Counted from the first letter of the stretch, positions 2,361 through 18,005 are shown. The stretch: DNA of 30,235 nt from Steroidobacteraceae bacterium (GCA_035571175.1 DATMKO010000061.1:1-30235); one strand, 5' to 3'. The notes: a model not told the origin generated them from the letters alone. Made by a program: numbers and translations.

Positions 2361-4252
2361 CACGGTTTGGCCTTCGGCGCATTCGATGCGCGATCATAGA
2401 TCGCGGCCAATTCGTAGCGCGCCTGGATTTGGTAGGCCTCGATGCGCTGTTTTTGACCTTCGAGCTCCTGTATGGCGAGCACTTGCAGGAATCGGTTCTG
2501 CCTCTCCGACACATCGGCCAGGCGCTGCTGCAGATCATCGATGCGGCCGCGTACATCCGAGACACGCGATCCGTACTCGCCGGTGGTCAGCGGCGTACCC
2601 TCGCGAGCCTGCTTGACCAGCACGGCGCGCTTTTGCGTCTCCTTGAGTATGCCCTCGAGTTCCTTGACCGAGCGCCGTTCATTCCACACCCTCGCTTTGA
2701 AGCTCTCCGACAGGCGCCAGTACATGACTCCCTTCATCAGGCGATGCTTTTCGCGCATCTCCGTCAACTCCGGATCGTCCGGGTGCGCCGCGAGATAATC
2801 CTCGATGCGCTTCAATCGCGCCCAGGTTTGCTGCTCCTCGGGCGTGCCCAAAGCCGCCACGTCATTGGATTTCTCGATGTCGTTGATGCGCGATTCGAAA
2901 TCCACGCGTTGCCGGGTCAAGCCGTCGAGATCGGTGGCGCCCAAGACCGCGTCAGCCTTCGGAACGCGTTGCGTATAGGCCGCCTGGCGGGTATCCAGCA
3001 TGTCGTGAAAGGCTGCGATGTCATCGTGCCAGGCGTCCAGATTGCGGCTCATGAAATTGAGTTCGCGATAATTCTTCAAGCCCTCCTGAAATTCATTGCT
3101 CGCCAGGAGTGCGTACAGGTAGCGCGACTCGGGAGCATCGGGCACGCTGGTCAGCTGCCAGTACCAGGTCAGCGTGTCCTTCTTGTCGTCGTTCAGCAGG
3201 CGGTCGAGCATCTTGCCGCTGCGAATCTGTTCGATTGAGTCGTCAATCAGCTTCAATTCGGAATCGAAGGATGCAATCGCCGACTCGTAGCCTTCGGCGG
3301 CCTGCCCGGTGGCGGACAATTGCAAATATGCATAGGGCACGGTGAGAAAGGACTCTTGAACCGCCGAGTCCAGCAAGCTGCGCTTGCGCAATGCAACCCA
3401 TGGCACCAGCGCGCGCTTGAATTCGCCCATGCCGGCGTCCGCCCAGCCGACTCCGAGCAGCGCCTTGCTTGAGTACGGGCCTTCGAGCCGGATTCGCTGC
3501 AGGATGGGCCTGGCTTCAGCCGCCCGCTGCGCCTGCAGCAGCGCAAACCCGAGGGCGAGATTTGCCTTGTCCTTCAGCGCCAACAATTCCGGGCTGCGCG
3601 TCTGCATGGTGCCGACCCGATCAAGATACCTGGCGGCGTCGGCAAGCCGCTCCTTGCGCACCAAAGCTATCCCTAAGTTGAACTGTGCATACGCGGTCCA
3701 GTCCGGCGCACCGTGCCAATTGCTCAAGGCGGCAATCGCCTCGTCATAGCGCCCCTGCTTCATCATCAATTGCGCGATCAGCATGTAACGTTCGGCGTTG
3801 ATGCGCGGATCCATCTTGTCTGAGACCTGCCGCAGCGCGCGCTCCGATTCCTCCAGGTAGCCGCGCTGATACCAGACTTTTCCCAAATAAAACCACGCCC
3901 GGTTGCGCACCGCTTCGGAGGTGTTTTGTTTGAGCAAGGCCTCGAAGATCCTGCCGGCCTCCACGTGCTGGCCCAGCGACAGGTACAAACCACCGAGCAG
4001 CAATTCCGCTTCGCCTTCGGTGTGCGGAATCCGGTTCTGTTCGCGCGCCGCGAGCAGACGGGTAATCGAATCGAAATAATCATCCTGAAAGAAATAAAAC
4101 AGCACATCGCCGTATTGCAGATCCTGCACCACATGCGGCGGCAAACCGTTGGGATCCGGCTTGACGTTTTTCGCCGGCGCGGACGCCAGCGGCAGCGCCA
4201 GCAGCAGCCCGCCGAGGATCAGCGGCCGACGTCTATTAATAACGCGCTGCAC
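2360..4252 (-). CDS. Exported TPR protein with C-terminal coiled-coil region (630 aa)
   Basis: GTG start and signal peptide (RRRPLILGGLLLALPLASAPA). TPR-like repeats (AELLLGGLYLSLG, AWFYLGKVWYQRG, AQFNLGIALV, ANLALGFALL, ALLGVGWA). Helical coiled-coil C-terminal half. Coupled to the neighbouring genes. Confidence 0.88.
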   Translation of the reverse strand: MQRVINRRRPLILGGLLLALPLASAPAKNVKPDPNGLPPHVVQDLQYGDVLFYFFQDDYFDSITRLLAAREQNRIPHTEGEAELLLGGLYLSLGQHVEAGRIFEALLKQNTSEAVRNRAWFYLGKVWYQRGYLEESERALRQVSDKMDPRINAERYMLIAQLMMKQGRYDEAIAALSNWHGAPDWTAYAQFNLGIALVRKERLADAARYLDRVGTMQTRSPELLALKDKANLALGFALLQAQRAAEARPILQRIRLEGPYSSKALLGVGWADAGMGEFKRALVPWVALRKRSLLDSAVQESFLTVPYAYLQLSATGQAAEGYESAIASFDSELKLIDDSIEQIRSGKMLDRLLNDDKKDTLTWYWQLTSVPDAPESRYLYALLASNEFQEGLKNYRELNFMSRNLDAWHDDIAAFHDMLDTRQAAYTQRVPKADAVLGATDLDGLTRQRVDFESRINDIEKSNDVAALGTPEEQQTWARLKRIEDYLAAHPDDPELTEMREKHRLMKGVMYWRLSESFKARVWNERRSVKELEGILKETQKRAVLVKQAREGTPLTTGEYGSRVSDVRGRIDDLQQRLADVSERQNRFLQVLAIQELEGQKQRIEAYQIQARYELAAIYDRASNAPKAKP

Positions 4253-4255
4253 GCA

Positions 4256-4933
4256 TCATTCCCAGTCTTTGATCATGAACTCAGGTTGATGCTTGGGAAC
4301 ACGGTCGGTGATCTTCAGCTCCAGATACTTTGCACCGACGCCCTTGTCGAAACTGATGGTGGCGCCGCGCTTGTAGGCGCGCTCCACCGGACCCTTGCCG
4401 GTAAAAAACGCCACCAGTTCATGTTTGCCGACCTTCAAATTGCCCAAATAAATCTGCTGCACTCCGCCCTTGAGCAGTGCATCGGCTTCGCGCGCGGTGT
4501 ACAGATAATTCTTCACTTCCTTGTTGTCGATCTTGACGGTCACCGAATCCAGCGCGAAGAACGTGCCTACGTCCATCGATATGTAGAGCGCGACCTGGGT
4601 ATTGGCGGGAAACAGCAGTTCTTCTTGCAGAACGAACAGGTCCTTGTTGAGGTCAATGACGTCCTTTTTCAGACTCTGCACTTCCTGATCCAGGGTCTTG
4701 AGTTCGGCCGGCGGCGCATCCGGGGCTGCGGCAGCTGCCGGCGGCGCGGAATCGCTCCCCGGCGTTGGGGCGGCAGCGGCCGGATTTTGCTCGCTCGGCG
4801 CAGCTGCCGGCGGCGTTGCCGGAGCCGCAGCTGCGGGGGCCGCCGCGTTCGCCGCCGACGCGCCTGCGGCCATCCACGCCGCCGACAGCACGCCGAAAAC
4901 CATGATCGACACAACCCGGACTTTAAGATTCAT
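4256..4933 (-). CDS. Secreted protein: signal peptide, Ala/Pro-rich linker, coiled coil and beta-rich C-terminal domain (225 aa)
   Basis: Signal peptide, AAAPAAAAPATPP low-complexity linker, coiled coil LDQEVQSLKKDVIDLNKDLFVLQEELL, then a beta-rich domain. No helix-turn-helix is visible. From memory, homologues are often labelled 'AraC family regulator', which the sequence does not support. Confidence 0.8.
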   Translation of the reverse strand: MNLKVRVVSIMVFGVLSAAWMAAGASAANAAAPAAAAPATPPAAAPSEQNPAAAAPTPGSDSAPPAAAAAPDAPPAELKTLDQEVQSLKKDVIDLNKDLFVLQEELLFPANTQVALYISMDVGTFFALDSVTVKIDNKEVKNYLYTAREADALLKGGVQQIYLGNLKVGKHELVAFFTGKGPVERAYKRGATISFDKGVGAKYLELKITDRVPKHQPEFMIKDWE

Positions 4934-4947
4934 AACTGGCCTATCGT

Positions 4948-5451
4948 TTACTCGCGCAGCAATTCGCGAATTTGATCAAGAAAAATGCGCTCATCACCGC
5001 GCTTGAAGCCGACAATCGAATAGCGCACCACGCCGGCGCGATCCACCAGGATCGTCATGGGCATTTTTTGCAGCAAGTAGTCTTTGCCGATTTCTGATCC
5101 GGTATCGAACAGGATCGGATATGACACTCCCATCGCGACCGCGAACTCCTGCGCACGGCGCAGATCCTCGTCGACCGACACGCCGATCACCACGAGTCCG
5201 GCGCGCTGGTAGGTGGTGTTGATGCGGTCGAGCGCCGACATCTCCTGCCGCGAATCGCCCGCCCAGCGCGCCCAAAAATTAACCAGAACCACCTGGCCGC
5301 GATACTCGGACAAGCGCAAATTTCTGCCATCCAGTCCACGCAGCACAAAATCCGGCGCCTCCTTGCCCACCATGGTCGGCGCGGCCGCAAGCGAGGAGCC
5401 GGCCATTGCGGCGCCGAGGATCAGGCAGCCGAGGAAGAATGCTCTACGCAT
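4948..5451 (-). CDS. TlpA/ResA-like thioredoxin-fold protein lacking both active-site cysteines (AGDS in place of CxxC)
   Basis: APDFVLRGLDG..LRLSEYRGQVVLVNFWARWAGDSRQEM..MPMTILVDRAGVVRY is a typical TlpA scaffold. Codons at 5251-5262 read GCG GGC GAT TCG (A-G-D-S). The only Cys lies in the signal peptide. Confidence 0.88.
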   Translation of the reverse strand: MRRAFFLGCLILGAAMAGSSLAAAPTMVGKEAPDFVLRGLDGRNLRLSEYRGQVVLVNFWARWAGDSRQEMSALDRINTTYQRAGLVVIGVSVDEDLRRAQEFAVAMGVSYPILFDTGSEIGKDYLLQKMPMTILVDRAGVVRYSIVGFKRGDERIFLDQIRELLRE

Positions 5452-5861: not shown

Positions 5862-7481
5862 CTAGGCAACTAATCCATTGACGAGACCGGCCAGCGGTTG
5901 CCATGCAACCAGCGGTTCGAGCGCGGTGCCGCTGCCCAGGGTGTTGTTCAAGTTCGGCGCGGGCCACAGTGTCGGCCACGCGGATATCGCGTTGGCACTG
6001 TGCAGCGCCATGTAGTTGAGCACCACCATCTGCACCAGGTTGGGTACGTTGTTGCCGGCGGGGCTGCCGGTGGTGTTCTGCGAACCGTCGGGATTGAAGT
6101 TGCCGATCTGCAAACTCATTTCCGGATTGGATTGCGCGGACACCGCCCTTCCCGCGGGATTGAAGACCAGGAAATAGGTCGCCGCGACGCTTTGGTTGTC
6201 GGCCGTCCAGACGCCCTTGCCGCGCCCGCCAACGGAGTTGTCGATCATGCCGTTGCTGGCGAGCGAGCCGTCGCTGAATACATAGATCATCACCGGTTTG
6301 CCCACGCGGTTGGCATATTCCAGAACCGCGCCGATGCAATTGCCCAGGTTCAAATCCTTGGCCTCACCGTCCATGCGGTTGCCGCTGTGATAGTCGAAGC
6401 CGCCCATTTCGATGGTGCCGGCGGCGGCATTGCCGTCGATCACGAGTTTCATGACTGCCGCGGTCGCTTGATAGGACGAGTTGGCCTGGTATTCGGCCGT
6501 TTGGAAGATGCCGCTGGCGCCCACGATGTTCGGATCCACGTCGGGATTCACGGCGGACGGACTGTTGTACTTGTCGACGATGTAGGCCGACTTCGTATAG
6601 CCGCAGGCCTCGATTCCGGCCGACCCGATTGCTGCGGTATTCAATGCCGCATTATTCGGATACGCCGTCACCACGCCGTACTTGGCATCGCTGATGCGCT
6701 TCATGGACTCCAGCACATTGGTGACGTCGGAAGAATTGGGCAGCAGCGTGCTCAACTGTCCGGTGCTGACCAAACCCTTGCTGTCCTGCGAACTGGAGAT
6801 TTTGGTCGGCGTCGCCGACGGGATGACCATGGTGGGCGGTGACATGGAGTTGCCACCCGACATGGAACTATCCGTGCCGATGAGATTCAGCAGGCCGCCG
6901 CGCGCGCCCGCTTGATAGATGCCGTACATCGGGTTGTGCGGATTGGTATTGGTATCGTTTTGCGACAGCGCAGGAATGATCGTGCCGGTCGTGCCCGCCA
7001 TGGCCGCGGCGCTGGCCCGCAGCTTCATGCCGCGCAAATGCGCGCTGTCCGAGTGATAGCGCAAGCCGAAGCTCGCGTCGACGAAACTACCCGAGGCGCT
7101 GGCATTCGGCACCATGGTTCCGGGCAGTCCCAGTTTGCTGTAGCCTGCGACCGAGAGGAAATCCAGCTGCCCGGCAGGACCGCCGACCAGCACATTGGAT
7201 CCGGCGATATTGCCGCCGCCGGCGAGGTCGAAGCAGATGAACGGGATCTTGCCGGCGCCGGTGGTGATGTTGCAGGCGGTTACCGCGGCCTGGATATCCG
7301 CAGCGAGCGTCGCGCGAGCAGATCGCGGGTAGGCCAGCATACCGGCCAGCGTCGGTGCGACCACCGTCGCCGCGCCGGTGATGAAGCCCTGCGCGAGGAA
7401 CTCGCGGCGCGTGCGTGGCCGTGGGTGATCCTGGTGACGGAACGGCCCGTTGGTACCCGCCGTAACTGATTTCTTGCTCAT
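5862..7481 (-). CDS. Tat-exported DUF1501-like protein of unknown function (539 aa)
   Basis: Twin-arginine motif RTRREFLAQG with a signal ending SARA. The motifs PFICFDLAGG, IEMGGFDYH and VMIYVFSDG resemble the DUF1501 motifs (xFLxGG, GGWDTH, vvxsEFGR). A purine-rich SD (GGAAGAGG) precedes ATG 7481. Confidence 0.65.
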   Translation of the reverse strand: MSKKSVTAGTNGPFRHQDHPRPRTRREFLAQGFITGAATVVAPTLAGMLAYPRSARATLAADIQAAVTACNITTGAGKIPFICFDLAGGGNIAGSNVLVGGPAGQLDFLSVAGYSKLGLPGTMVPNASASGSFVDASFGLRYHSDSAHLRGMKLRASAAAMAGTTGTIIPALSQNDTNTNPHNPMYGIYQAGARGGLLNLIGTDSSMSGGNSMSPPTMVIPSATPTKISSSQDSKGLVSTGQLSTLLPNSSDVTNVLESMKRISDAKYGVVTAYPNNAALNTAAIGSAGIEACGYTKSAYIVDKYNSPSAVNPDVDPNIVGASGIFQTAEYQANSSYQATAAVMKLVIDGNAAAGTIEMGGFDYHSGNRMDGEAKDLNLGNCIGAVLEYANRVGKPVMIYVFSDGSLASNGMIDNSVGGRGKGVWTADNQSVAATYFLVFNPAGRAVSAQSNPEMSLQIGNFNPDGSQNTTGSPAGNNVPNLVQMVVLNYMALHSANAISAWPTLWPAPNLNNTLGSGTALEPLVAWQPLAGLVNGLVA

Positions 7482-7506: not shown

Positions 7507-10032
7507 TTAGTAGATCAACATGTCGGCGCTGCCGAAGGCCGTCGCGCAGGCCGCGGCGGTGACCGCCTGTACCCGTGCGGTGGTCGTGCAAGCGGTGCTG
7601 CTGCAAAGATTGGTTATCAACTTGTCGAGCTCGCCGCTGGCTCCTGTCATGGTCGAGGCCGCCGGCTGGCTTTGCAGACCGCTGCCGAGCACCTTGGCCG
7701 CGAGCGGGCCGGTGACCGAGTCGATACCGGCCTGCGTCCCGAACAATCCAGCACTCAAGGTCACGCCCGGGAACATGGCCGAAACCAATGCCGGGTTGTT
7801 GACCATTTCATTGCAGTACTGGATGGCGATCTGCGCGATGCCGACCTGTTGCGCCGAGGAGAAGCTCTCCAGCGTCGGAATCGCCGGCAGCTGCTGCTGT
7901 ACGGCCTGATATGTCGCGACCACGTTCGGATCCGAAGTCGCCACGCCCGTGAGCGCCGACAGCGTCGAATTGACCGATGCAAAGGTCTTGATGCCGATAT
8001 CGGCGACCACCGGACCCGGCGAGGGCGCCGGCGCGGTCGGCGTCGGCTCGACCACCACATCGGTCTGGCTGCCCAGCACGTCGAAGGTAAGGAAGAACTG
8101 GTCGCTGGCAGGCCCGCTCTGCAGCGCAATCACGGTGCCGATGGGCGACAGCACCTCGCCCGTTGGCGTGTAGTTGGCCGCAGTCACGGTGGTATTCAGC
8201 GGTATGTAGGCCTGGCCCACTGACGGGATCGTGCCGTTCAAGCCGATGCGTATGCCCTGCACCGGAATGCTGGGCAGGTTGGCCGAGGTAACCGTCGGAT
8301 CCAGCGAGATGAAAGTCGGCTGGTAGAACAGGTAGCTGTAGCTGTCGTACTGGCTGACCGTGAACATCACATAGGACTGCGACACGTTGGTGACGCTCGC
8401 CACATTGAACAGCATGTAGTAGCGCTCGCCAACGCCCGCGTTGAAGTTCTGCATCACCTGCGCAGCCGACATGGCGCGGCTATGGATGGCGACGAACTTG
8501 ATGAGTCCCGTCCAGGACCGATCGCCGGACACGCCATTGCCGAGCACCAGCGCGAAGGTGCTGTCCCAGTTGGAGATGGTGCCGCCCTTCTGTGCATCAG
8601 CCGGACCGACGTTCACGCCGTTGACGTAGATCATGCGGCCGTTGACCGGATCGTACGTCAGCACCACGTGCTGCAAAGACGCCTGCAAAGCCATGGCAGC
8701 ATTCGGAGTCTGCAGCTGCGGCATGCCGGTCAGCGCCGTTGTCGAGGCGCGCATCAGGAAGTCATAGTCCTGATTGGTTTGACCCAGCGTGAAGTTACGC
8801 GTGGTGTCACCGCCCTCATAACTGACCATGTAGGAATTGTCGACCGCCACCACCGCGGGCGCCACCCAGGCCTCGACCGAGAACTCGCCCGTCGCCTGGA
8901 TGAGATTGTAAAGCTTCGAGCTCGAGGCGGTCGTGGCCTGCGCCTTGCCGCCGCTGCCGACATTGATACCCCAACCGCCGGCCAGGGTGACGTTGCCCGA
9001 GATCGTGAGATCCGCAGACGGGTCGATGCCGCTGGTGTCGAACGTGGTGTTGTTGACGATCGACTGGAACTCGTACTTGGCGATCGTGTCGGCATCGTAG
9101 CGGCTCGCGCCGCTGGCGATGGTGCCCTGCGTGAGCGTTATCGCCTTGCTGACGACCAGATTAGGATCGATGTTGGACGGGGTCAGCATTTGCGCGAATG
9201 CCTGAATCTGCGCCAGCATCTGCGCTGCATCGGAAGCGCAGTTGTCCCAACAGTTGTGGTTGTCGGTAAGCAGCCGCTGATACAGGCGTGAATTCACGCC
9301 GCACGACAAGGGAGTCGTGGTGCCGTTGCTGTTGCCGGCGACGAACGGACTGCAGCCGGTGAAGTCGATTTTCGGAATCGCTGCCGGATAAGCAATCAAC
9401 AGATTGGGATCGGCGTGATACGGCTGCTGCTCCACGGAAGGATCGGCCGTCGTCGAATGGCAGCGCACACAGTACTTGCTGGTCAGCGTGTACACCGTGT
9501 TCTGGTAGTCGGTGTAGGACGCCGGGAAGTTCAGGCTCTGTCCGACGGTTTGCACCGGCGGCGCCACCAATTGCACCGTGGTTGAGGAGGTGGCTCCCGT
9601 GGCATTGGCCCAGTTGGTGATCCAAGTGGTCAAAATCTGGCCGCAGGCGTTAGGGTCGGCGAGCCAGCAGTTGTGACCGCCGCTCACCTTGATAACCATG
9701 GTTGACTGCGAGGGTTGCGCCAGGTTGACGACGGTGTTGGCCTGCACGTAGGCGAGATTCACATCGTCGCTGCGCGCAAAATTCGGCATCTGCGCCGGGG
9801 TGGTGGCGTTGTGGCACTGTCCGCAGCGGTTTTGCACGCGGATGTTGTTCCACAGATTGATTTCGAACGCCTGGACGTCCGCCGTCGCCGGCGCAGGCCC
9901 CGTGTAGGTGCTCGCCGTTGCCGTCTGCGAGGGCGCAACGTTGGCCACGGTTGGAGCGCCGGCGCCGCCGCAAGCGCTTAAGGCGAATGACGCTGCGAGA
10001 GCGATCAAGCCGGTAATGCGTGTAGCGTTCAT
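7507..10032 (-). CDS. Lipoprotein with two c-type heme domains and a LamG/concanavalin-A-like domain (about 841 aa)
   Basis: Lipobox LSA-C. CxxCH motifs CGQCH (9811-9825) and CVRCH (9457-9471), each followed downstream by HNCW...C. LamG_3 signatures GEFSVEAWV, LQHVVLTYD..MIYVNG and WTGLIKFVAIHSRAMS. The start was moved from TTG 10038 to ATG 10032, which follows a GGGGA SD. Confidence 0.85.
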   Translation of the reverse strand: MNATRITGLIALAASFALSACGGAGAPTVANVAPSQTATASTYTGPAPATADVQAFEINLWNNIRVQNRCGQCHNATTPAQMPNFARSDDVNLAYVQANTVVNLAQPSQSTMVIKVSGGHNCWLADPNACGQILTTWITNWANATGATSSTTVQLVAPPVQTVGQSLNFPASYTDYQNTVYTLTSKYCVRCHSTTADPSVEQQPYHADPNLLIAYPAAIPKIDFTGCSPFVAGNSNGTTTPLSCGVNSRLYQRLLTDNHNCWDNCASDAAQMLAQIQAFAQMLTPSNIDPNLVVSKAITLTQGTIASGASRYDADTIAKYEFQSIVNNTTFDTSGIDPSADLTISGNVTLAGGWGINVGSGGKAQATTASSSKLYNLIQATGEFSVEAWVAPAVVAVDNSYMVSYEGGDTTRNFTLGQTNQDYDFLMRASTTALTGMPQLQTPNAAMALQASLQHVVLTYDPVNGRMIYVNGVNVGPADAQKGGTISNWDSTFALVLGNGVSGDRSWTGLIKFVAIHSRAMSAAQVMQNFNAGVGERYYMLFNVASVTNVSQSYVMFTVSQYDSYSYLFYQPTFISLDPTVTSANLPSIPVQGIRIGLNGTIPSVGQAYIPLNTTVTAANYTPTGEVLSPIGTVIALQSGPASDQFFLTFDVLGSQTDVVVEPTPTAPAPSPGPVVADIGIKTFASVNSTLSALTGVATSDPNVVATYQAVQQQLPAIPTLESFSSAQQVGIAQIAIQYCNEMVNNPALVSAMFPGVTLSAGLFGTQAGIDSVTGPLAAKVLGSGLQSQPAASTMTGASGELDKLITNLCSSTACTTTARVQAVTAAACATAFGSADMLIY

Positions 10033-10034
10033 GC

Positions 10035-11249
10035 TCAATTCCCCATGCAGTAAGCGGCGCCTTCAGCGAAGGGTTGCCGCAGCGAATAGTTGTGCGCTTG
10101 GAACGAAGTGATCATCGAATTGATCTGAGTGAAGTCGGCGGCGGAATTCGGCGCGCGCAGACACACGGTCTTGAACACCCGGGTGACCTGGCAGCTGGTG
10201 AATGCCGCGCTGCTCTCCAGTTCCTGGCCCATGGACTTGGCACCGTTGCCGCTGCCCGGAAGGGCCGCGCTCCATCCCAGCACATAGTTCGGTCCGGTGC
10301 GCCAGTGGTTGTTCCAGCTGTCGTCCGGGGTGTTGAACCCTTGCGGGAAATTGGTGTTGTTAATATGGTACTTCGGCTGTGTTTGGCCGGCGGTGTACTG
10401 GATCTGGCCGACGGTGTCGGTCATGGTCGGGTCGGTGCCGGTGAAGTTGTAGAAGGCAAAGGCCTGCGCCATCGGATCCATGCCGCTGTGACAGCCGATG
10501 CAGTTGTTCAGGAACAGAGTGCTGACGCCGCCCGGGCTGCGCGTCACGTCCTGGCGAATTCGATCCGGTGGCCGCGTGATGTCCATCACGGTCGGCAGGT
10601 CGTTACACAGATGGTTCAACATCGTGAAGCGGAACATCGCCCGGTTTGTGCCGTTGATGAAGAACGCGCTGGCCGCGCCGCGCGTGGTCATGATGCCGGC
10701 GGTCGCCGCAGCAGGGATGCCGGTCAGCGCCGATTGAGTGCTTGAAACCAGGTGGACGCTGAGGTCGACATTGTTGGCGTCCAGTGCGTCGTACATGGCG
10801 TTGTTCGCCGGCGAATACGTTCCCTCGCCGGACTTGCCGTCGCCGACGTAAACCAAATCGGCGCTGAGCAAGGTATTAAAAGGAACGTTGTCGCGCACCA
10901 TGCCGACCACGGTCGCGGTGTAATCGTTGAGCGAGACGAACACCGATTGATCGCGGTTGGTCCAGGGCGCCGCCATGTTGCGGATGGTGTTGTTGTAGAA
11001 CGCCGGGTCGTTGGTGGCGATGAGTGCGGCGGCTACCGGGCTGGCCGCGCTCGTCATCTGCGACAGCTGCGCCGCGGTGGGCGGCACACCGGCGATGCGG
11101 TTGTAGATTCGCGTCGCTTGGTCGGCGTTGGGTGCCTGCGCGAGCGCCTGCCCGCCAAGCAGTGCTACAGCGCCTGCACACGCGGCTGCGCGCACAGCGA
11201 GCGTTACAAGATGCGGCGTGGCTGCCGCGCGGCGTGCAATCTGCCTCAT
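10035..11249 (-). CDS. Exported monoheme c-type cytochrome, DUF1588/DUF1585 (PSD)-like (about 404 aa)
   Basis: Signal peptide ending GGQALA. CIGCHSGMDPMAQAF (CxxCH at 10488-10502) and AGIMTTRG..NRAMFRFTMLNHLC resemble DUF1588. The C-terminal FTSCQVTRVFKTVCLRAP..FQAHNYSLRQPF resembles DUF1585. The start was moved to ATG 11249, which follows a GGAGA SD. Confidence 0.72.
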   Translation of the reverse strand: MRQIARRAAATPHLVTLAVRAAACAGAVALLGGQALAQAPNADQATRIYNRIAGVPPTAAQLSQMTSAASPVAAALIATNDPAFYNNTIRNMAAPWTNRDQSVFVSLNDYTATVVGMVRDNVPFNTLLSADLVYVGDGKSGEGTYSPANNAMYDALDANNVDLSVHLVSSTQSALTGIPAAATAGIMTTRGAASAFFINGTNRAMFRFTMLNHLCNDLPTVMDITRPPDRIRQDVTRSPGGVSTLFLNNCIGCHSGMDPMAQAFAFYNFTGTDPTMTDTVGQIQYTAGQTQPKYHINNTNFPQGFNTPDDSWNNHWRTGPNYVLGWSAALPGSGNGAKSMGQELESSAAFTSCQVTRVFKTVCLRAPNSAADFTQINSMITSFQAHNYSLRQPFAEGAAYCMGN

Positions 11250-11606
11250 TGGTTTCTCCATCCCGTTGTTCATATGCACATCCACTCGCGTGAGTTGTCG
11301 GTTCGACTGGGTGCGAATATACGCAGCCCACAAGGCCCCCAGTAATGTCTCATCCAGACGACGTCGGCGTTTCGCGACAGTACGACCATTAAGAGTGCGC
11401 CTATATCCTGAGCCTCGATTGCCGCACGGTCTGGCACGGCGTGCACAGAGAAACGGATATGGACAAGTTCTTCTGTGAGTGCGTTAACAGTATGCGTATG
11501 CGCGTCGAACGAAGATGCGCATATGAGACCGATTAAGTTCAATGATGCCGTCTTCACGCGTGCCGGCCGATCGCTGAACCGAAACATTGTGCATAGGTAG
11601 CAACAA

Positions 11607-14330
11607 ATGAACACTTGCAGTCCGCGTGAACGACATCACGGTTTGCTGAAACTCGCAGCGCTCGCTCTGCCCCTGCTCGCGATGCTTGGCTGCGAAAGCG
11701 CCACGACCGGGCATGCGCCGGGTCTCGCGGGCGGACAAAACCTGACCCCCGGCATCACCAATTATCCGCTGGCCTACATCAAGCGCCCGGTGATCACCAA
11801 GGATTTCGACAACGTCCGCGACCTCATCACCTCGATGACGGGCGGCGATGTGTACATCCGCGATACCGCCAGCGCCGGCGGCGCCGAAACCAACATCACC
11901 GCATCGATCACCAAGGGCATGGGCGATGTCCGCGACCTCGATGTGTCGCCGGACGGCGCGAAAATGATTTTCTCGCTGCGCCTGCCGCTGAACCCGAAAC
12001 TCAAGAATACGGACCTGAAGCAGCCGAATTGGCACATCTACCAGTATGACGCCGCGGCCAAGACCGTTACCCAGCTGACCAACGATGACATCACCGCGGG
12101 CCACGATGTCGGCGGGCACTATCTGCCGGACGGCAGAATCGTATTCTCCTCGACACGGCAGCTCGCGACGCAATCCATCCTGCTCGATGAGGGACGTCCG
12201 CAGTACTCGGCCGAGACCGACAATCGCCAGCAGGAGATATTCCTGCTGCATGTGATGAACGGCGACGGCACCCAGATGCATCAGATCAGTTTCAACACGA
12301 ATCACGATTTCTTGCCGTCCGTCTCGGCCAATGGGCAGATCATCTTCTCGCGCTGGGAAGTCACCAACGGCGCCGATCAGGTCAGCTTGTATCGCGCCAA
12401 TCCGGACGGCACCGGGCTGCAGCTCTACTACGGCGCCAACAGCCATGCCAGCGGTGCCAACATCGCAGGCACCAACAACAACGTGATCCAGTTCGTCAAT
12501 GCTCGCGAGCTTGCCAGCGGCGCGCTGGTGTCGATTGTTCGGCCGTTTATGGGCACACAGCTCGGTGGCGACATCGTCACGATCAACGCGCCCGAATTCG
12601 TCGAAATCCATCAGCCGGCCACGCCGGGGGGCACCGCCGGCACCGCGCAGGCCAGCACCACGACCCTGGGGGTCACCACGGATGCGAATCTGCCGTCCAT
12701 GGGCGGTCGCTTTGCCTCGGTTTTCCCTCTCTATGACGGCACCAATCGCATGCTGGTGAGCTGGTCGCCCTGTCTGGTTCTCGACACCACCGTGACGCCC
12801 AATACCACCAATCTTTGCACCGCCGCGAATACCGCCGGCGCCAACGTGACCTTGGCGCCTCCGCAGTACACATTGTGGATTTACGATTTGGATCAAGGAA
12901 CCTTGGGCCCGGTGTTGAGCGCCGATGTGGGCACCATGGTCGTCGAACCGGTGATTTTGCAGGCGCGCAAGCCGGTACCGACCACCTTGGTCGATGCAGC
13001 TCCCGCGCCCGGCGCACAGCAGAACATGGCCACCGCGGGTGTCGGCTTGCTGGATATCAGCAGCGTCTACGATGTGGACGGTGTTGATACCGCGGTGCCG
13101 AGTATTCCAGGGCTGGCGGACCCAAGCCAGGCGCCCTTCTATACGCGACCGTACCGCTTCGTAAGAATTCAGAAGTCGGTGGAAATTCCCGACAAGACGG
13201 TGCGCAAGATCAACAACTCCGCGTTCGGACCCGCGGGAATGGGGATGCGCGAGATTCTCGGCTACGCGCCCATCCAGCCCGATGGATCGGTGCAGATCCA
13301 AGTGCCCGCCAACGTCCCCTTCACGATCGACATCGTCGATGTGAACACACGGCGCATCTTGTCGCAGCACACCAGCTGGCTGCAATTGCTGCCGGGAGAG
13401 ACCAAGACATGCAATGGCTGCCACACCACCGTCAATATGACCTCGCATGGCCGCTCGGGATTGACCAACCCGGTTAATCCGGGCGCGCCGACCACCGGTC
13501 AGCCGTTCCCGAATACCAGTCCGGCGCTGTTTGCCAACGCCGGCGAAACCATGGCACAAACCCTGGCACGGATCACCTGCGCGAACGGCAAGACTCCGAG
13601 CGGCGCCGCTACGCCCTGCTCGCAGCTCCTGACCTCGGATGTGATCTACGCCAATGTCTGGACCACGGGCATCACCCCGCCGGCCGGAGACACCGACGCC
13701 AGCTTCTCCTATCCCTATACCGGCGTCACGGGACTCTCGGAAACGCCACCCACCAATGCGAATTGTGTGCCGTGGACCGCGCAATGCCGAATCACGATCC
13801 ACTACGATACCGACCCCGTGAAGCAAACGTTCCTGCAAGCGGTGTGGAGCCTGCCGACTCGCTTGGCGGCTGACGGCGTTACCCCGGCGGTTTGCGTGAC
13901 CTGTCACAACCCGGTGAACGCGATGGCCATGGTACAAGTGCCTCAGGGCCAGCTAGACTTGACGGGCGGTGCATCGAGTGTGGACCCGACCGTGGTCACC
14001 TCATATGAGGAAGTGCTGTTCCCTCACAACGAACAGACGCTTAATATGGGCGTGCTGCAGGATTTGTTGGTGCCGGCGCCGGGACCTCCGGATCCTGTGA
14101 CCGGACTTCCGACCACGATAATGGTGCCCGTGTCGTTGGCGCCGCCGATGGCTGCCGGCAGCGCAGCGGGATCGACAACTTTCTTGAGGATGTTTGACGG
14201 TAGTTTTCATGACCCCGTACTCGATCACACCGGCTATTTGTCGCCCGCTGAACTGCGATTGATAACCGAATGGCTCGACATTGGTGCTCAATTCTACAAC
14301 GATCCGTTTGTCGCGCCCGTAGCGAACTGA
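11607..14330 (+). CDS. Hydrazine synthase alpha-subunit-like diheme lipoprotein: PD40/WD40 beta-propeller, HZS_alpha middle domain and C-terminal cytochrome c (907 aa)
   Basis: Lipobox MLG-C. Propeller repeats DLDVSPDGAKMIFS, YLPDGRIVFSSTR, DFLPSVSANGQIIFSRWE and LYRANPDGTG. HZS-alpha middle signature DGSVQIQVPANVPF..WLQLLPGETKTCNGCH (CxxCH at 13410-13424). Second heme motif CVTCH (13893-13907) and C-terminal ELRLITEWLDIGA. Confidence 0.85.
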   Translation: MNTCSPRERHHGLLKLAALALPLLAMLGCESATTGHAPGLAGGQNLTPGITNYPLAYIKRPVITKDFDNVRDLITSMTGGDVYIRDTASAGGAETNITASITKGMGDVRDLDVSPDGAKMIFSLRLPLNPKLKNTDLKQPNWHIYQYDAAAKTVTQLTNDDITAGHDVGGHYLPDGRIVFSSTRQLATQSILLDEGRPQYSAETDNRQQEIFLLHVMNGDGTQMHQISFNTNHDFLPSVSANGQIIFSRWEVTNGADQVSLYRANPDGTGLQLYYGANSHASGANIAGTNNNVIQFVNARELASGALVSIVRPFMGTQLGGDIVTINAPEFVEIHQPATPGGTAGTAQASTTTLGVTTDANLPSMGGRFASVFPLYDGTNRMLVSWSPCLVLDTTVTPNTTNLCTAANTAGANVTLAPPQYTLWIYDLDQGTLGPVLSADVGTMVVEPVILQARKPVPTTLVDAAPAPGAQQNMATAGVGLLDISSVYDVDGVDTAVPSIPGLADPSQAPFYTRPYRFVRIQKSVEIPDKTVRKINNSAFGPAGMGMREILGYAPIQPDGSVQIQVPANVPFTIDIVDVNTRRILSQHTSWLQLLPGETKTCNGCHTTVNMTSHGRSGLTNPVNPGAPTTGQPFPNTSPALFANAGETMAQTLARITCANGKTPSGAATPCSQLLTSDVIYANVWTTGITPPAGDTDASFSYPYTGVTGLSETPPTNANCVPWTAQCRITIHYDTDPVKQTFLQAVWSLPTRLAADGVTPAVCVTCHNPVNAMAMVQVPQGQLDLTGGASSVDPTVVTSYEEVLFPHNEQTLNMGVLQDLLVPAPGPPDPVTGLPTTIMVPVSLAPPMAAGSAAGSTTFLRMFDGSFHDPVLDHTGYLSPAELRLITEWLDIGAQFYNDPFVAPVAN

Positions 14331-14334
14331 ACTG

Positions 14335-15069
14335 ATGCGTCGTCTGCTCGCGCTGGTGCTGCTGCTGCAGGCGTTACATGTAGGACTAGCGGAAGCCGCC
14401 GACAAGTACCTGGTACTCGTGGTCACCGACCCTTACCTGGAAATGCACTCCGGGCCGGGGCGCGGCTTTCCGATCGTATACGTGATTGGACGGGATGAAC
14501 TCGTCACGGTGCTGTACAGCCGCACCGACTGGTTCAAAGTTCGCGCACCGCGTGGACAAGAAGGCTGGGTGCGCCGCTCCGACCTGTCGCGCACGCTGTT
14601 GGCCAGCGGCGAACCGGCGCCGATACCGCCATATCCCGATTTCGCCAGTCATCGCTGGGAGGTCGGCGCCGGTTACGGCGTTTACAACCGCGAGAATCTG
14701 GTCACCACTTACGCCGACTTCGGCCTTACTTCCAGCCTCGACGTCGAGTTTGTCGTGCAGCAGGCATTCGGTACTCTGGACAACCGCTACATCGCGACCA
14801 TTGGATTGCGGCACACCTTTGTACCCGAATGGAAGTGGTTCTCACCGACGGCTGGAATAGGCACCGGCTATCAGTTTATCCAAGATGTAGTTCCACCCGC
14901 GCCGCTGCAGAACAATAACGAGATGGCCTACGTCTCGCTGGGCGCCCGCGGTTTCATCACCCGTCGCTTCATGTGGCGCGCCGATTGGCGCCACTATGTC
15001 GTCTTCAACAATCAGAATGTGTATGAGGATCTAGAAGAATGGAAATTAGACTTAGCAGTATTCTTCTAG
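14335..15069 (+). CDS. Bacterial SH3 domain plus outer-membrane beta-barrel protein (244 aa)
   Basis: Signal peptide and SH3-like segment (LEMHSGPGRGFPIV..WFKVR..EGWV). Alternating aromatic/hydrophobic strands follow, with a terminal Phe beta-signal (LAVFF). Confidence 0.8.
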   Translation: MRRLLALVLLLQALHVGLAEAADKYLVLVVTDPYLEMHSGPGRGFPIVYVIGRDELVTVLYSRTDWFKVRAPRGQEGWVRRSDLSRTLLASGEPAPIPPYPDFASHRWEVGAGYGVYNRENLVTTYADFGLTSSLDVEFVVQQAFGTLDNRYIATIGLRHTFVPEWKWFSPTAGIGTGYQFIQDVVPPAPLQNNNEMAYVSLGARGFITRRFMWRADWRHYVVFNNQNVYEDLEEWKLDLAVFF

Positions 15070-15710
15070 TCGCGGCGCTGCTGTCCGGCTGCAGCTGGTT
15101 TCACCGCGGCAACAAGGGTCCGCCCGAAGTGGTTGCGGAGGAGCCGCAGGGCGAGCCGTCGATCGTCGAGCCGCAGGTGACCCGCCGCGTGGTAAAGACG
15201 CCCAAGATCAAAGCCAAGGACTTCGAGGTGGGCGCGTATTTTGGTGCGCTCAGCATTCAGGATTTCGGCACCAATCCGGTTTACGGGGTGCGCGGCGCGT
15301 ACCACGTATCGGAGGACATTTTCCTCGAAGGCTACGTGGGCCGCTCCAAAGCCGGAACCACCAGTCTCGAGGACGTGTTTCCGGATATCACGGTGGTCAG
15401 CAACTCTGGGAGGTATTTCACGTACTACGACCTGGACGTAGGCTACAACGTACTGCCGGGCGAGATCTTTCTGGGACGCGGACGCGCGTTCAATTCGGCC
15501 CTGTACGTGACGGTCGGCATGGGCGATGTGAAATTTGCCGATAAAGACCAGTTCGCGTTGAACTTTGGGGTAGGCGAGCGGCTGCTGGTAACCGATTGGA
15601 TGGCGATTCATCTGGATGTACGAGACCACATCTTCGAAACCGATCTGACCGGCCGCACCAAGAATGTCGACAACATCGAAGCCACACTGGGCTTAACCTT
15701 TTTCTTCTGA
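15039..15710 (+). CDS. Lipoprotein-signal outer-membrane beta-barrel protein, OmpA-like 8-stranded class, TIGR04565-like (223 aa)
   Basis: Lipobox LSG-C. Amphipathic strands FEVGAYFG, YGVRGAYH, LYVTVGMG and FALNFGVGER. The C-terminus is ATLGLTFFF. Confidence 0.8.
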   Translation: MEIRLSSILLVAALLSGCSWFHRGNKGPPEVVAEEPQGEPSIVEPQVTRRVVKTPKIKAKDFEVGAYFGALSIQDFGTNPVYGVRGAYHVSEDIFLEGYVGRSKAGTTSLEDVFPDITVVSNSGRYFTYYDLDVGYNVLPGEIFLGRGRAFNSALYVTVGMGDVKFADKDQFALNFGVGERLLVTDWMAIHLDVRDHIFETDLTGRTKNVDNIEATLGLTFFF

Positions 15711-15726
15711 TCAGGAGTAATGATCA

Positions 15727-16236
15727 ATGCATATTGCCAAATCAAGTCTATTGAAACGCTGCGCGATGGCGGCGCTCGTGCTCGCCTCGTCCGCGTTCGC
15801 GGCCGGCGGCGATGCCGCGGGTCCCGCACCTTCCTTCACGTTGACCACCCTCGCCGGCCAGCCCGGCGGCCTCGGCGAGTACAAGGGTCAGGTCGTGATG
15901 GTTAACTTCTGGGCGACCTGGTGCGGACCCTGCCAGCAGGAAATGCCGCTGTTGGACCAAATGTACAAGAAGTACAAACCGGCGGGATTTACCCTGATCG
16001 GCGTCAACGTCGACAAGGAGTCGCCCGCGGTCAAGGAATTGTTGGCGCGCAAACCCGTGAGCTTCCCGGTGCTGCTGGATCCCGCCAACCAGGTGAGCAA
16101 GGCCTACCACGTCGATGAGATGCCGAGCTCGGTCATCATCGATCGCAAGGGTCAGATTCGCTACGTGCACCGTGGCTACAAGCCCGGCGACGAAAACGAC
16201 TATCAAGATCTCATTCGCAAGCTCATCCGGGAATAG
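15727..16236 (+). CDS. TlpA-family thiol:disulfide oxidoreductase (169 aa)
   Basis: Signal peptide, NFWATWCGPCQQEM active site, cis-Pro motif EMPSSVIID and an AGGAG SD upstream. Confidence 0.92.
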   Translation: MHIAKSSLLKRCAMAALVLASSAFAAGGDAAGPAPSFTLTTLAGQPGGLGEYKGQVVMVNFWATWCGPCQQEMPLLDQMYKKYKPAGFTLIGVNVDKESPAVKELLARKPVSFPVLLDPANQVSKAYHVDEMPSSVIIDRKGQIRYVHRGYKPGDENDYQDLIRKLIRE

Positions 16237-16239
16237 CCC

Positions 16240-16461
16240 ATGCGCTGCCAACCGCTCTTGGCGTTGAGCGCCTTGCTGCTGCTCTCCGCGTGCAACATCC
16301 AGCCCTGGGTGAAACCGTATGAGCGCGACCGCCTCGCGGATCCGATCATGGCCTGGGACCGCGACGCCATCTCCGGCGCCTACCTGGATCACATTCGTGA
16401 ATCCAGAGAGGGATCACGCGGCGCCACCGGCGGAGCGGGCGGCGGCTGCGGCTGCAACTGA
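16240..16461 (+). CDS. DUF4266 small lipoprotein (73 aa)
   Basis: Lipobox LSA-C, VKPYERDRLADPIM motif and C-terminal GGAGGGCGCN, all characteristic of DUF4266. Confidence 0.88.
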   Translation: MRCQPLLALSALLLLSACNIQPWVKPYERDRLADPIMAWDRDAISGAYLDHIRESREGSRGATGGAGGGCGCN

Positions 16462-16464
16462 CGT

Positions 16465-17640
16465 ATGGCGCGACGGCAACGCATCTTCGCTCGTGCAGCA
16501 GTCATCGCTGCGTTGCTGCTGGTCCGCAGCACGAGCGCGGATGTGCTGCCCGACGATCGCGCCGATCTTTTCTACAGCAAGTACAGCGGCGGCGGGATGG
16601 ATATCACCGGCGAATCCGCGACAGTGCGCAAGAAATTCACGGAGAACATCGCCGTTGAGGCCAATTATTTCATCGACAAGGTCAGCGGCGCATCCATCGA
16701 CGTGCTGAGTCAGGCGAGTGTCATCAAGGACACTCGCAAACAAAAGACCGGCACGATCGAATATCTCCACGACAAAACCACCTACACCGCCTCGTACATC
16801 AGCAGCACCGAGCGGGACTACGTCTCCAATACGGCGAGTTTTTCCTTGAGCCAGGACATGTTCGGCGATCTGACCACCGTGTCTCTCGGTTACGCCAAGA
16901 CCAACGACCGGGTTGGTGAAAACAACGGCACCGCCTGGGTTCCGATCATCGATTGGCTGGGATACGCGCAAACCAGCAGTTACACGGGGGGCATCTCGCA
17001 GATCATCACCAAGAATTTCATCGCAGGATTGAATCTGCAGGTCATCACGGACAGCGGCTACCTCGCCAACCCCTATCGCTCGGTCCGGTACCTGGACTCC
17101 AGCAATCCCAAAGGCTACTCGCTGGCCAGCCAGGTGTATCCCGACACGCATACCAGCACGGCAATTCAAGTGCAGGGCAAGTACTACCTGCCCTATCGGG
17201 CCGCTGTGACGGCCTCGTATCGGTACTACACCGACACCTGGGGAGTGGTCGGCAACACCGTGGAACTCGACTACACCCATCCGATCCGCAATCTTTGGAT
17301 ACTGGAGGGTCGGGCGCGGTACTACAAACAGGGGGCGGCGACTTTTTACAGCGATTTATTTCCGTTCGCGAACGCTCAGAATTTCGAGGCCCGCGACCAG
17401 AATCTCGCCGCTTTGGATAATTATACGCTCGGCGCCAAAGCCACTTACGCGTTCTTGCCCGATGGATGGAAGTTCTTCAAGCGCGCCACGGTCACGCTCG
17501 ACATCAGCCGCATTCGCTTCAACTACACCGACTTTCGCAACATCAAGTACTACGGTGTGCCGCAATATCCGCCGGGGACGGAACCCTTGTACTACTTCAA
17601 CGCCACGGTCAGCCAGATCTACATATCGATGTTTTTCTGA
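16465..17640 (+). CDS. DUF3570-family predicted outer-membrane beta-barrel (391 aa)
   Basis: Signal peptide, VDxxSGAS-type motif (IDKVSGASIDV), GYLANPYRSV, many Tyr/Thr-rich strands and terminal Phe (ISMFF). It sits directly after DUF4266, as expected for the family. Confidence 0.85.
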   Translation: MARRQRIFARAAVIAALLLVRSTSADVLPDDRADLFYSKYSGGGMDITGESATVRKKFTENIAVEANYFIDKVSGASIDVLSQASVIKDTRKQKTGTIEYLHDKTTYTASYISSTERDYVSNTASFSLSQDMFGDLTTVSLGYAKTNDRVGENNGTAWVPIIDWLGYAQTSSYTGGISQIITKNFIAGLNLQVITDSGYLANPYRSVRYLDSSNPKGYSLASQVYPDTHTSTAIQVQGKYYLPYRAAVTASYRYYTDTWGVVGNTVELDYTHPIRNLWILEGRARYYKQGAATFYSDLFPFANAQNFEARDQNLAALDNYTLGAKATYAFLPDGWKFFKRATVTLDISRIRFNYTDFRNIKYYGVPQYPPGTEPLYYFNATVSQIYISMFF

Positions 17641-18005
17641 CCCGACCTGACGAGCCCACGCCACCACACCAGCAGCATGGGCGCCAGCGCGCTGATGATG
17701 GCAATCGTATCCGCGACCCAGTCCCAAAAATCCCGATCTCTGTGCACCAACGGAAGCCCCTGCACCACCTCGATCAGGGCGCCGAACGCGGACAGCAAGG
17801 CGGCGATCAAGAACAGGTTGCGCTTCGGAAATGCCGCGACCGCAAGACCGGTCAAAGCATAGAAGGCCATGAAGTGCTCGGCCTTGTCCCACGGCGCCAA
17901 TTGCAACGCAAGCTGCGAGGGTATGACGGCGCTGTAAAACGTAAAGACGAGAGCGGCAAAGAATGCGATCTGTGCCAGCTTGAGCAATACCGATACTTTG
18001 AGCAC
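17619..18005 (-). CDS. VanZ-like integral membrane protein (about 128 aa)
   Basis: The C-terminal half of track ORF 17619..18380 has four hydrophobic segments with WDKAEHFMAF, GALIEVVQG and RDRDFWDWVAD. The N-terminal 125 aa of the track ORF are antisense to the HiPIP gene and its upstream region. GTG 18005 is the likely start, but this is uncertain. Confidence 0.75.
   Translation of the reverse strand: MLKVSVLLKLAQIAFFAALVFTFYSAVIPSQLALQLAPWDKAEHFMAFYALTGLAVAAFPKRNLFLIAALLSAFGALIEVVQGLPLVHRDRDFWDWVADTIAIISALAPMLLVWWRGLVRSGQKNIDM

Follow-up and report, generated by a model that had tools for sequence, protein, structure and literature searches.

A Predicted Di-Haem Lipoprotein Homologous to the Alpha Subunit of Hydrazine Synthase Heads a Conserved DUF3570 Operon in Gammaproteobacteria

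Introduction

HzsA, the alpha subunit of hydrazine synthase (HZS), is a soluble protein of the anammoxosome and is represented by the Kuenenia stuttgartiensis structure (PDB 5C2V, chain A), the Pfam domain PF18582 (HZS_alpha) and the equivalog model NF052339. The second of its two haems, haem alpha-II, is held by two His ligands and its role is still unknown (PMC12607021). HzsA-like proteins outside the anammox bacteria have already been published (PMC12758564; PMC11828985). Here we describe a relative of HzsA encoded in a 30,235 nt stretch of DNA from a Steroidobacteraceae bacterium (GCA_035571175.1, DATMKO010000061.1:1-30235), hereafter the window. Its gene is the first of an operon that also encodes a DUF3570 outer-membrane barrel.

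Published non-anammox homologues come from two sources. Hagglund et al. (2025) reported clades I-IV, which are planctomycete, desulfobacterotal, acidobacterial and others, and which were chosen for an adjoining fused beta-gamma homologue (PMC12758564). A "previously undescribed HzsA" was reported from cold-seep metagenome-assembled genomes (PMC11828985). The non-anammox homologues are exported and were judged unable to make hydrazine, and the NCBI name for them is "HzsA-related protein". No gammaproteobacterial or pseudomonadotal member is present among the HzsA homologues of these two papers.

The closest described counterparts of the rest of the operon are the "DsbD systems" of Meheust et al. 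(2021). For Chlorobium luteolum it was demonstrated by experiment that ApbE flavinylates DUF3570, and DUF3570 genes typically cluster with ApbE, a thioredoxin-like protein, DUF4266 (with a C-terminal CXC) and sometimes DsbD, in what are considered systems of extracytosolic electron transfer (PMC8238504). The text and searched supplements of that paper hold no mention of HZS, PF18582 or hydrazine.

A Full-Length Homologue of HZS-Alpha

The HzsA-like gene (11607..14330, + strand) is an open reading frame of 907 amino acids. A signal peptide and lipobox (11607..11693, ...LLAMLGC29) lead to a lipidated Cys29, which is invariant in 73/73 aligned homologues within a lipobox-like L-x-[AGS]-C. In E. 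coli, lipoproteins in which the residue after the lipidated Cys is other than Asp are sorted to the outer membrane. The residue is Glu in this protein and Gly in most family members, which by the E. coli rule suggests outer-membrane sorting; the lipoprotein is probably located there.

Behind the anchor lies a six-bladed TolB/PD40-like beta-propeller (amino acids ~50-454, 11754..12968), which was recognized from a TolB alignment, a weak PD40 repeat match in Pfam and collinear pieces of profile matches. It is followed by the PF18582 middle domain (amino acids 532-606, 13200..13424) with the haem-1 motif at its end. The Pfam match scores 58.2 bits (E 1.3e-15) against a cut-off of 26.6, and the genome-level match covers 13182-13424. 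The full stretch before haem 1 reads P596-G-E-T-K-T-C602-N-G-C605-H606. The haem-1 motif itself, C602-N-G-C605-H606 (13410..13424), corresponds to C583/C586/H587 of HzsA in a column map of the two proteins, and the haem-2 motif C763-V-T-C766-H767 (13893..13907), in a cytochrome-c-like C-terminal domain, corresponds to C685/C688/H689. A preliminary description made from the sequence had named this architecture in a non-anammox host, and each of its parts was found, including the propeller, the middle domain with CNGCH, the second C-terminal haem domain (CVTCH) and the lipoprotein anchor. The host lineage is gammaproteobacterial and the nearest homologues are named Steroidobacteraceae. The gene product is thus predicted to be a lipid-anchored protein that carries two covalent c-type haems on an HZS-alpha fold.

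An alignment of 73 family sequences (A1) was the basis of both an AlphaFold2 model and a family profile. The model has a predicted local distance difference test (pLDDT) score of 87.7 and a predicted template modelling (pTM) score of 0.88. The low pLDDT of residues 30-49 fits a tether behind the lipid anchor. A Foldseek search with the model gave 5c2v_D/A as the top match (E 1.7e-25, target-normalised TM score 0.62), with TolB next (5.5e-10). VIA-align against 5c2v_A gave a Z of 33.1 and a root-mean-square deviation (rmsd) of 3.5 A over 601 residues, pairing 50-907 of the model with 54-808 of the chain. The alignment spans nearly the whole model, so the likeness to HZS-alpha reaches well past a generic propeller. 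The superposition on Kuenenia HZS-alpha had been put forward in the preliminary description as a check, and it resulted in a match over the full length rather than over the propeller only.

Sequence profiles led to the same protein. The family profile matched PDB 5c2v_A (E 3.9e-19) in collinear pieces within the propeller, the middle domain and the C-terminus. True HzsA sequences were gathered by a search with a 62-residue piece of 5c2v_A and their identity was confirmed by NF052339, on which P0274 and P0284 score 1549 and 1568 bits. A profile-profile comparison (hhalign) of the family against eight true HzsA gave a probability of 99.8% and an E of 1.8e-27 over 591 columns at 22% identity. Both VIA-align and hhalign place the propeller, haem alpha-I and haem alpha-II domains in the order of HZS-alpha, as had been claimed. 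Homology to HZS-alpha is genuine and extends over the full length. The two proteins are about 18-22% identical and have in common both CXXCH motifs and the distal haem ligand His772. They differ in that HzsA is soluble, whereas the Steroidobacteraceae protein carries a lipid anchor instead, and in that their operons and hosts are wholly different.

The second-best structural match, TolB, is the periplasmic propeller of the Tol-Pal system, and its propeller fold is shared with the N-terminal half of the HzsA-like protein. VIA-align against TolB covers 272 residues (Z 26.9), all within the propeller (model 42-454), and TolB chains in general give a Z of ~26 over 265-278 residues. Unlike the HzsA-like protein, TolB has no lipid anchor and no haem domains and is encoded outside redox operons. 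An identity as TolB was rejected, with 29.5 bits on TIGR02800 against a cut-off of 343; the likeness is restricted to the propeller fold.

Haem Sites Kept and Lost

HzsA residues are numbered here as in Kuenenia, via P0274. C583, C586, H587, Y591, C685, C688, H689 and H772 are invariant in our HzsA alignment (A5).

The covalent attachment site of haem 1 is strongly conserved in the family alignment, where C602, G604 and C605 are invariant and H606 is found in 70/73 sequences. H606 aligns with His587 of the HzsA zinc site. The residues that set the HZS active site apart are missing. The column of Tyr591 holds N610 here. It is Tyr in 7/7 HzsA, one of N/S/A/T in 12/12 sampled members of the gammaproteobacterial family (hereafter the gamma family) and Tyr in 0/33 of the PF18582 proteins outside HzsA that were compared, and no conserved Tyr occurs at positions 607-613 among the 73 family sequences. 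The column of the zinc ligand Cys303 holds N278, with His in 43/73 of the family and Cys in none. Cys303 is not universal in true HzsA either, being found in 3/7 of those sampled, in agreement with a published report (PMC12758564). The Tyr ligand of haem alpha-I and the zinc site, which the preliminary description had singled out for comparison, are therefore not conserved. The published non-anammox homologues likewise keep haem motif 1 and are without Tyr591 and Cys303.

Two other features lie close to haem 1. The motif H614-G-R (13446..13454), with His in 72/73, sits after a three-residue insert where HzsA has R592-G-R following Tyr591, and H614 is a candidate haem-1 ligand or pocket residue. 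It is followed by a family-specific insert of about 55 residues (amino acids 616-676, window 13452-13634) that has no HzsA counterpart and contains T648-M649-A650, invariant in the family. M649 is a candidate sixth ligand of haem 1. Residue combinations across the family gave no informative covariation among positions 278, 280, 606 and 614. Since Tyr591 and Cys303 are absent, haem 1 is probably ligated canonically by H606, with H614, H588 and M649 as candidates for the sixth position. Haem 1 has lost the Tyr ligation of catalase type by which the HZS active site is defined.

The few family members that depart from His at the H606 column (window 13422-13424) have Tyr (2/73) or Leu (1/73), and the one with Leu also has Val at H614. 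These proximal-ligand variants may be informative, given the Tyr ligation in HzsA.

The second haem site is kept. C766 and H767 are invariant in the 73 sequences. H874 (14226..14228), which is present in 68/73, aligns with His772, the distal ligand of the bis-His haem alpha-II, in phmmer, hmmsearch and MAFFT alignments. An equivalent of His772 is found in 11/12 sampled gamma members and 7/7 HzsA, and in 0/9 planctomycete "HzsA-related" proteins; clade I HzsA homologues are reported to be without it (PMC12758564). The retention of H874 points to a bis-His haem 2 as in HzsA, most likely an electron-transfer haem like alpha-II.

Distribution and Phylogeny

The family is large. Searches resulted in 3440 homologue clusters (50% identity) at E <=1e-3 and 492 at E <=1e-30, and the majority of the 150 best clusters listed are full-length, about 850-1000 amino acids. 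At least 582 species-level genomes encode a relative. Nearly all of the best 80 of these are labelled gammaproteobacterial or proteobacterial, and they include Steroidobacteraceae, Woeseiaceae, Nevskiaceae, Sedimenticolaceae (among them Candidatus Thiodiazotropha), a tubeworm symbiont and the isolate Lentisalinibacter sediminis C23. Within the genus 21/24 genomes carry the family, usually as a single match, as do 12/16 other families of the order and 30/251 genomes sampled across the class. Every fold neighbour in the ESM-Atlas is a PF18582 cluster; these come from Pseudomonadota, Myxococcota, Planctomycetota and Kiritimatiellota and show various fusions.

An unrooted tree was built with IQ-TREE (LG+G4) from 36 chosen rows and 680 columns, short forms excluded. 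The gamma family forms a single clade, set off by a long branch (0.99), with an SH-like approximate likelihood ratio test (SH-aLRT) support of 100. HzsA instead joins the planctomycete HzsA-related proteins (SH-aLRT 99), so the gamma family is not the sister of HzsA, and in this tree the planctomycete proteins lie nearest to HzsA. The preliminary description had suggested that this protein may inform the origin of HZS. Its value in this respect is limited by the grouping of HzsA with planctomycete proteins; what stands is that the bis-His alpha-II site appears to be old, and its retention in this branch suggests that it is ancestral to the fold.

The published homologues stand beside a fused beta-gamma gene, whereas the gamma family lacks such a partner and is encoded in another operon, one that is invariant. 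Compared with PMC12758564, PMC11828985 and PMC8238504, what is new here is a branch that lacks beta-gamma partners, retains His772, is encoded in an invariant operon with a DUF3570 module and is linked to TPR and motor genes.

Absence of a Hydrazine Synthase

The HzsA equivalog model NF052339 has a cut-off of 800 bits; the protein reaches 35.8, in a match confined to profile positions 523-586. The window holds no hzsB/C-like genes, no CCP/MauG-like protein and no gene for an HZS-beta-like propeller. In the organism's own genome, which is 76% complete, the hydrazine_beta model (NF052340) gave generic propeller-repeat matches of <=40 bits against a cut-off of 560, and the hydrazine_gamma model (NF052341) gave zero matches. 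The same two models reach <=49 bits in five relatives that are 95-100% complete, always hundreds of kb from the locus or on other contigs. A fused beta-gamma homologue was found neither in the tested genomes nor, for the loci examined, within 10 kb of the gene. The CCP_MauG model has two ordinary matches in the organism's own genome, a 430-amino-acid frame and a contig-end fragment, both on other short contigs and unlinked to the locus. The absence of hzsB/C-like genes noted in the preliminary description thus extends from the window to the incomplete genome around it and to the five near-complete relatives.

The two-haem LamG protein encoded upstream (see below) was considered as a cryptic gamma subunit and rejected, with a profile comparison against a CCP/MauG protein of the same genome giving a probability of 1.8%. 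A different gammaproteobacterial genome, G190, has the HzsA-like operon on contig C1 and, on contig C2 (~608766-610379), a 2146-amino-acid frame with weak hydrazine_beta (22 bits) and hydrazine_gamma (40 bits) matches. It may be a fused beta-gamma-like protein and is unlinked to the HzsA-like gene.

For practical purposes, the sequence evidence excludes the HzsA-like lipoprotein as a hydrazine synthase. That it belongs to a cryptic hydrazine synthase or to part of an anammox-like pathway in a gammaproteobacterium strikes us as exceedingly improbable. Such a reading could draw on the three-domain architecture and both haem motifs, common with HzsA, and on the interpretation of divergent HzsA-like genes of other phyla as anammox potential (PMC11828985). 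It is opposed by the score far below the equivalog cut-off, the absent Tyr591, the beta and gamma subunits that were not found in the organism's own genome or its five near-complete relatives, and the position of the family far from HzsA in the tree. An anammox function has been rejected even for closer homologues (PMC12758564).

The Downstream Operon

The gene neighbourhood was compared in 93 loci from species-level genomes in which the HzsA-like protein is 29-93% identical to this one; 64 of these have at least 6.5 kb downstream and 69 at least 6.5 kb upstream. In 64/64 loci the HzsA-like gene is followed on its own strand by genes for an SH3 protein, a small outer-membrane barrel, DUF4266 and DUF3570, and in 56/64 also by one for a TlpA-like thioredoxin. 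Members at 37-38% identity have the same gene order, and the order of the operon survived divergence to about 30% identity. In the class-wide sample DUF3570 is found in 27/28 genomes with an HzsA-like protein, and 23/23 pairs on the same contig lie within about 3.5 kb. The protein had been described at the outset as a stand-alone haem enzyme. It does not stand alone; its gene is the first of an operon, with four neighbours downstream that are present in each of the 64 informative loci.

The second gene of the operon (14335..15069, +) starts 4 nt past the HzsA-like stop and encodes an exported protein with an SH3_3 domain and a C-terminal small beta-barrel ending in ...LAVFF. Its layout is a signal peptide, the SH3 domain, a proline-rich linker and a domain of ~140 residues up to the terminal motif, and the C-terminus resembles a small outer-membrane barrel and not a YgiM-type tail anchor. 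The third gene (15039..15710, +) encodes a lipoprotein with an outer-membrane beta-barrel domain (TIGR04565) and the end ...LTFFF. The thioredoxin (15727..16236, +) is TlpA/ResA-like and periplasmic, matches Redoxin with 110.9 bits and has a WCGPC motif that is present in 60/70 orthologues. DUF4266 (16240..16461, +) is a small lipoprotein whose frame occupies the 228 nt gap between the thioredoxin and DUF3570 genes and was assigned through PF14086 matches on its orthologues. Its C-terminal GGGCGCN (CXC) tail is identical in 67/69 orthologues, and 19 positions are invariant in 40 sequences.

The DUF3570 gene (16465..17640, +; PF12094, 148 bits) encodes a 16-strand outer-membrane barrel with the ApbE flavinylation motif D-K-V-S-G-A-S at amino acids 70-76. 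The pattern D-x-[VI]-[ST]-[GS]-A-S fits all 40 motif variants listed from an alignment of 71 orthologues. In the model (pLDDT 85.5), which matches known barrels with a Z of about 20, the flavinylation site lies where strand 3 ends and the chain passes into a long loop. Phe-Phe, the customary C-terminal signal of outer-membrane barrels, concludes the sequence of DUF3570 as well as those of the SH3 protein and the small barrel. ApbE is not encoded in the window. Two copies are present on other contigs of the same, fragmented assembly, one of which is 54% identical to the in-operon ApbE of a relative, G202, where the gene stands directly after DUF3570.

The structural matches of DUF3570 were not taken as evidence for polysaccharide export. 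PelB, PgaA and BcsC are the top structural matches (Z 19-20), just 1-2 units over CymA and CdiB, and these matches appear to reflect the generic likeness of 16-strand barrels. PelB, PgaA and BcsC are TPR-linked exporters of exopolysaccharides under cyclic di-GMP control, and TPR genes are also found near the DUF3570 locus.

The CXXC thioredoxin, the CXC-bearing DUF4266 and the DUF3570 with a flavinylation motif reproduce the published "DsbD systems". The published clusters are without a cytochrome (PMC8238504), whereas here the trio is preceded by the HzsA-like lipoprotein and two small outer-membrane barrels. The DUF3570 of this locus also belongs to a divergent subfamily, which matches profile positions ~113-385 only and has one recognizable motif rather than two.

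A gene for a high-potential iron-sulfur protein (HiPIP) with a twin-arginine-like signal (18135-18476, +) follows the operon in the genus and is present in only 7-9 of the loci compared.

Soil metatranscriptome contigs from libraries of four studies matched the region. The evidence consists of assembled contigs, which carry no transcript ends, strand or expression level. Pieces from three studies lie inside the HzsA-like gene, e.g., 12902-13353 with one mismatch, and contigs in three studies bridge the junction of the HzsA-like and SH3 genes (13971-14595, 13998-14621 and 14301-14618) with 1-5 mismatches. They are compatible with transcription and co-transcription. A sigma-70 promoter scan of 11200-18600 found no site, and terminator-like sites were at chance level.

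A Proposed Thiol-Flavin-Haem Relay at the Outer Membrane

On balance, and with moderate confidence, we favour a reading in which the HzsA-like lipoprotein supplies the haems of a thiol/flavin/haem redox module at the outer membrane. The WCGPC of the TlpA-like thioredoxin would hand reducing equivalents to the CXC tail of the DUF4266 lipoprotein, and this tail would hand them to the flavin mononucleotide (FMN) that ApbE would attach to the DUF3570 barrel. The flavin would then exchange electrons, in one direction or the other, with the two haems of the HzsA-like lipoprotein, while the propeller may serve as a binding platform for a substrate or a partner. The conserved haem, CXC, WCGPC and flavinylation motifs, together with the invariant neighbours, support such a redox module. 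The route that electrons take, and in which direction, the contact of the parts with one another and catalysis of any kind are, like the outer-membrane location, inferred.

The nearest functional analogy is MtrCAB of Shewanella (PDB 6R2Q), in which a lipoprotein cytochrome, an outer-membrane barrel and periplasmic redox carriers are combined. It is an analogy only. MtrA and MtrC have no sequence or fold kinship with the HzsA-like protein and carry ten haems, compared to two here. MtrB is one of many generic matches to the 16-strand DUF3570 barrel with its flavin site (Z 14.2, rmsd 8.8), and contact between the parts of the present module is putative.

Several points weigh against the relay. 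All support for the family comes from sequence, gene order, models and RNA contigs, and the assembled contigs can neither prove a single transcript nor exclude DNA carry-over. The 93 loci all come from Gammaproteobacteria and share common descent, which makes the counts look more independent than they are. ApbE is encoded outside the operon here and within 10 kb in only 25/69 to 28/64 loci, depending on the required flank. Clusters of ApbE, DUF3570, DUF4266 and thioredoxin operate without an HzsA-like protein (PMC8238504); the thiol/flavin trio may thus have a function of its own, and its co-location with the HzsA-like gene may reflect a shared structure and not shared electrons. Haem attachment is another conceivable task for a thioredoxin encoded next to a cytochrome, and haem 1 could equally well be a catalytic five-coordinate haem or a pure electron-transfer haem. 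A complex prediction of DUF3570 (25-391) and DUF4266 (18-73) with the haem half of the lipoprotein (455-907) scored 0.00 and is evidence neither way.

Upstream Neighbours and the TPR/Motor Genes

Three genes are encoded divergently upstream of the HzsA-like gene in 66/69 loci. In the window they encode an exported protein of 432 amino acids with one CXXCH, PSCyt/PSD-like by language-model features (10035..11333, -), a lipoprotein of 843 amino acids with two CXXCH and a LamG domain (7507..10038, -) and a Tat-signal protein of 539 amino acids that is DUF1501-like by language-model features only (5862..7481, -). Sequence searches of the PDB with these three proteins gave no useful match. The trio (5862-11333, -) recalls the planctomycete pairing of PSCyt/PSD proteins with DUF1501 Tat proteins, a resemblance that comes from language-model features only, with no Pfam match.

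Beyond the trio, a Cys-less thioredoxin-like protein, a 225-amino-acid protein and two large TPR proteins are encoded from 5451 down to position 3 (3..5451, -), where the operon runs off the contig end. Its continuation, with ExbB/ExbD/ExbD/TonB-like genes, is on contig C458 of the same genome. Within 10 kb of the HzsA-like gene, the 225-amino-acid protein is found in 50/69 loci, a TPR protein of 630 amino acids in 49/69 and one of 787 amino acids in 38/69. In G202 the two groups of genes are part of one run of 16 genes on a single strand, which leads from the HzsA-like gene to ApbE, a coiled-coil protein, three TPR proteins and finally ExbB, ExbD, ExbD and a TonB-like protein.

A Glt/Agl-type "core complex", whose function is unknown, has been reported in Gammaproteobacteria (PMC3169522). 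Its domain composition of TPR proteins with ExbB, two ExbD and a TonB-like protein is matched in G202 and on C458; the comparison is one of composition and not of orthology. A wider arrangement can be proposed, more tentatively than the relay itself. The HzsA-like lipoprotein, flavinylated DUF3570, DUF4266 and the two small barrels may together be a new outer-membrane redox complex, in which cytoplasmic reducing power would be delivered by way of DsbD and thioredoxin to or across the outer membrane of many Gammaproteobacteria, and which a Glt-core-like motor would organize or energize under the control of cyclic di-GMP. We consider this joint reading possible and on the whole unlikely.

Alternative Explanations

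The conservation around haem 1 raises the question of catalysis. The protein may be a small-molecule oxidoreductase in which a five-coordinate haem 1 turns over H2O2, nitric oxide (NO), hydroxylamine or nitrite in a pocket where the middle domain meets the propeller, electrons arrive by way of haem 2, and the neighbours only supply reductant or assist biogenesis. This comes close to the view taken in the preliminary description. The equivalent haem of HzsA is a substrate-binding active site (PMC12607021), and the family has many near-invariant polar residues on the propeller and middle domain (H215, Q226, H233-D234, R249, S279-H280, H588, W591, E598 and H614-G-R), a larger set than a plain electron carrier should require. 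Low-potential electrons for a reductive detoxification could, moreover, come from the thiol/flavin chain. However, the active-site hallmarks of HzsA are missing, both Tyr591 and the zinc site for which His587 swings away from the iron to pair with Cys303, the ~55-residue insert with its invariant T648-M649-A650 could close the distal face of haem 1, and the conserved cluster contains no gene related to a substrate, such as one for a nitrite or NO reductase. We regard such an enzyme as unlikely, though it deserves to be kept in mind.

The other two explanations leave the haems or the neighbours with a different task, and both seem to us improbable, the one built on the motor genes a little less so. 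In that one, the protein would be mainly a structural, TolB-like adaptor of the adjacent TPR/ExbB-ExbD-TonB-like machine of Glt/Agl type, its propeller docking outer-membrane proteins or a TonB-like arm and its haems being structural or a redox sensor. After HZS-alpha the TolB chains are indeed the best structural matches (Z about 26), the G202 run of 16 genes begins with the HzsA-like gene and ends with ExbB, ExbD, ExbD and a TonB-like protein, most loci have TPR genes no more than 10 kb away, the motor genes are present in the organism's own genome, and a gammaproteobacterial core complex has been described (PMC3169522). Yet the family hardly varies in its two haem motifs and in the two His ligands of haem 2, which favours a redox use, the invariant neighbours are redox proteins (the thioredoxin, the CXC protein and the flavoprotein) and not motor parts, and the TolB equivalog score is 29.5 against 343. 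Under the remaining explanation the thioredoxin, DUF4266 and DUF3570 would be biogenesis or repair factors and not electron donors, keeping apocytochrome cysteines reduced or repairing oxidized envelope proteins, while the cytochrome would draw its electrons from ordinary periplasmic carriers such as the HiPIP or the divergently encoded cytochromes. Thioredoxins of the TlpA/ResA/CcmG type are established cytochrome-maturation factors, 66/69 loci have three further divergent genes for proteins with haem motifs or Tat export, and in the genus a HiPIP gene follows the operon. On the other hand, the trio is self-standing in hundreds of genomes without a cytochrome (PMC8238504), this operon has conserved both the flavinylation motif and the CXC tail, and the HiPIP is found in only 7-9 of the loci. 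Set beside these alternatives, the thiol/flavin/haem relay is the reading that we prefer.

Implications

PF18582 proteins are counted in metagenomes as markers of anammox potential. The very large gammaproteobacterial branch described here, with a relative in at least 582 species-level genomes and spanning soil Steroidobacteraceae, Woeseiaceae and sulfur-oxidizing symbionts, is for practical purposes not hydrazine synthase. Its members have kept the bis-His haem alpha-II site, whose role is unknown even in HZS, and this suggests that the site is ancient within the fold. The invariant linkage also gives the orphan DUF3570 electron-transfer system a concrete candidate for a redox partner. If the proposed relay complex and its Glt-core-like motor are real, they would provide a first function for PF18582 proteins, for the DUF3570 system and for the gammaproteobacterial Glt core complex.

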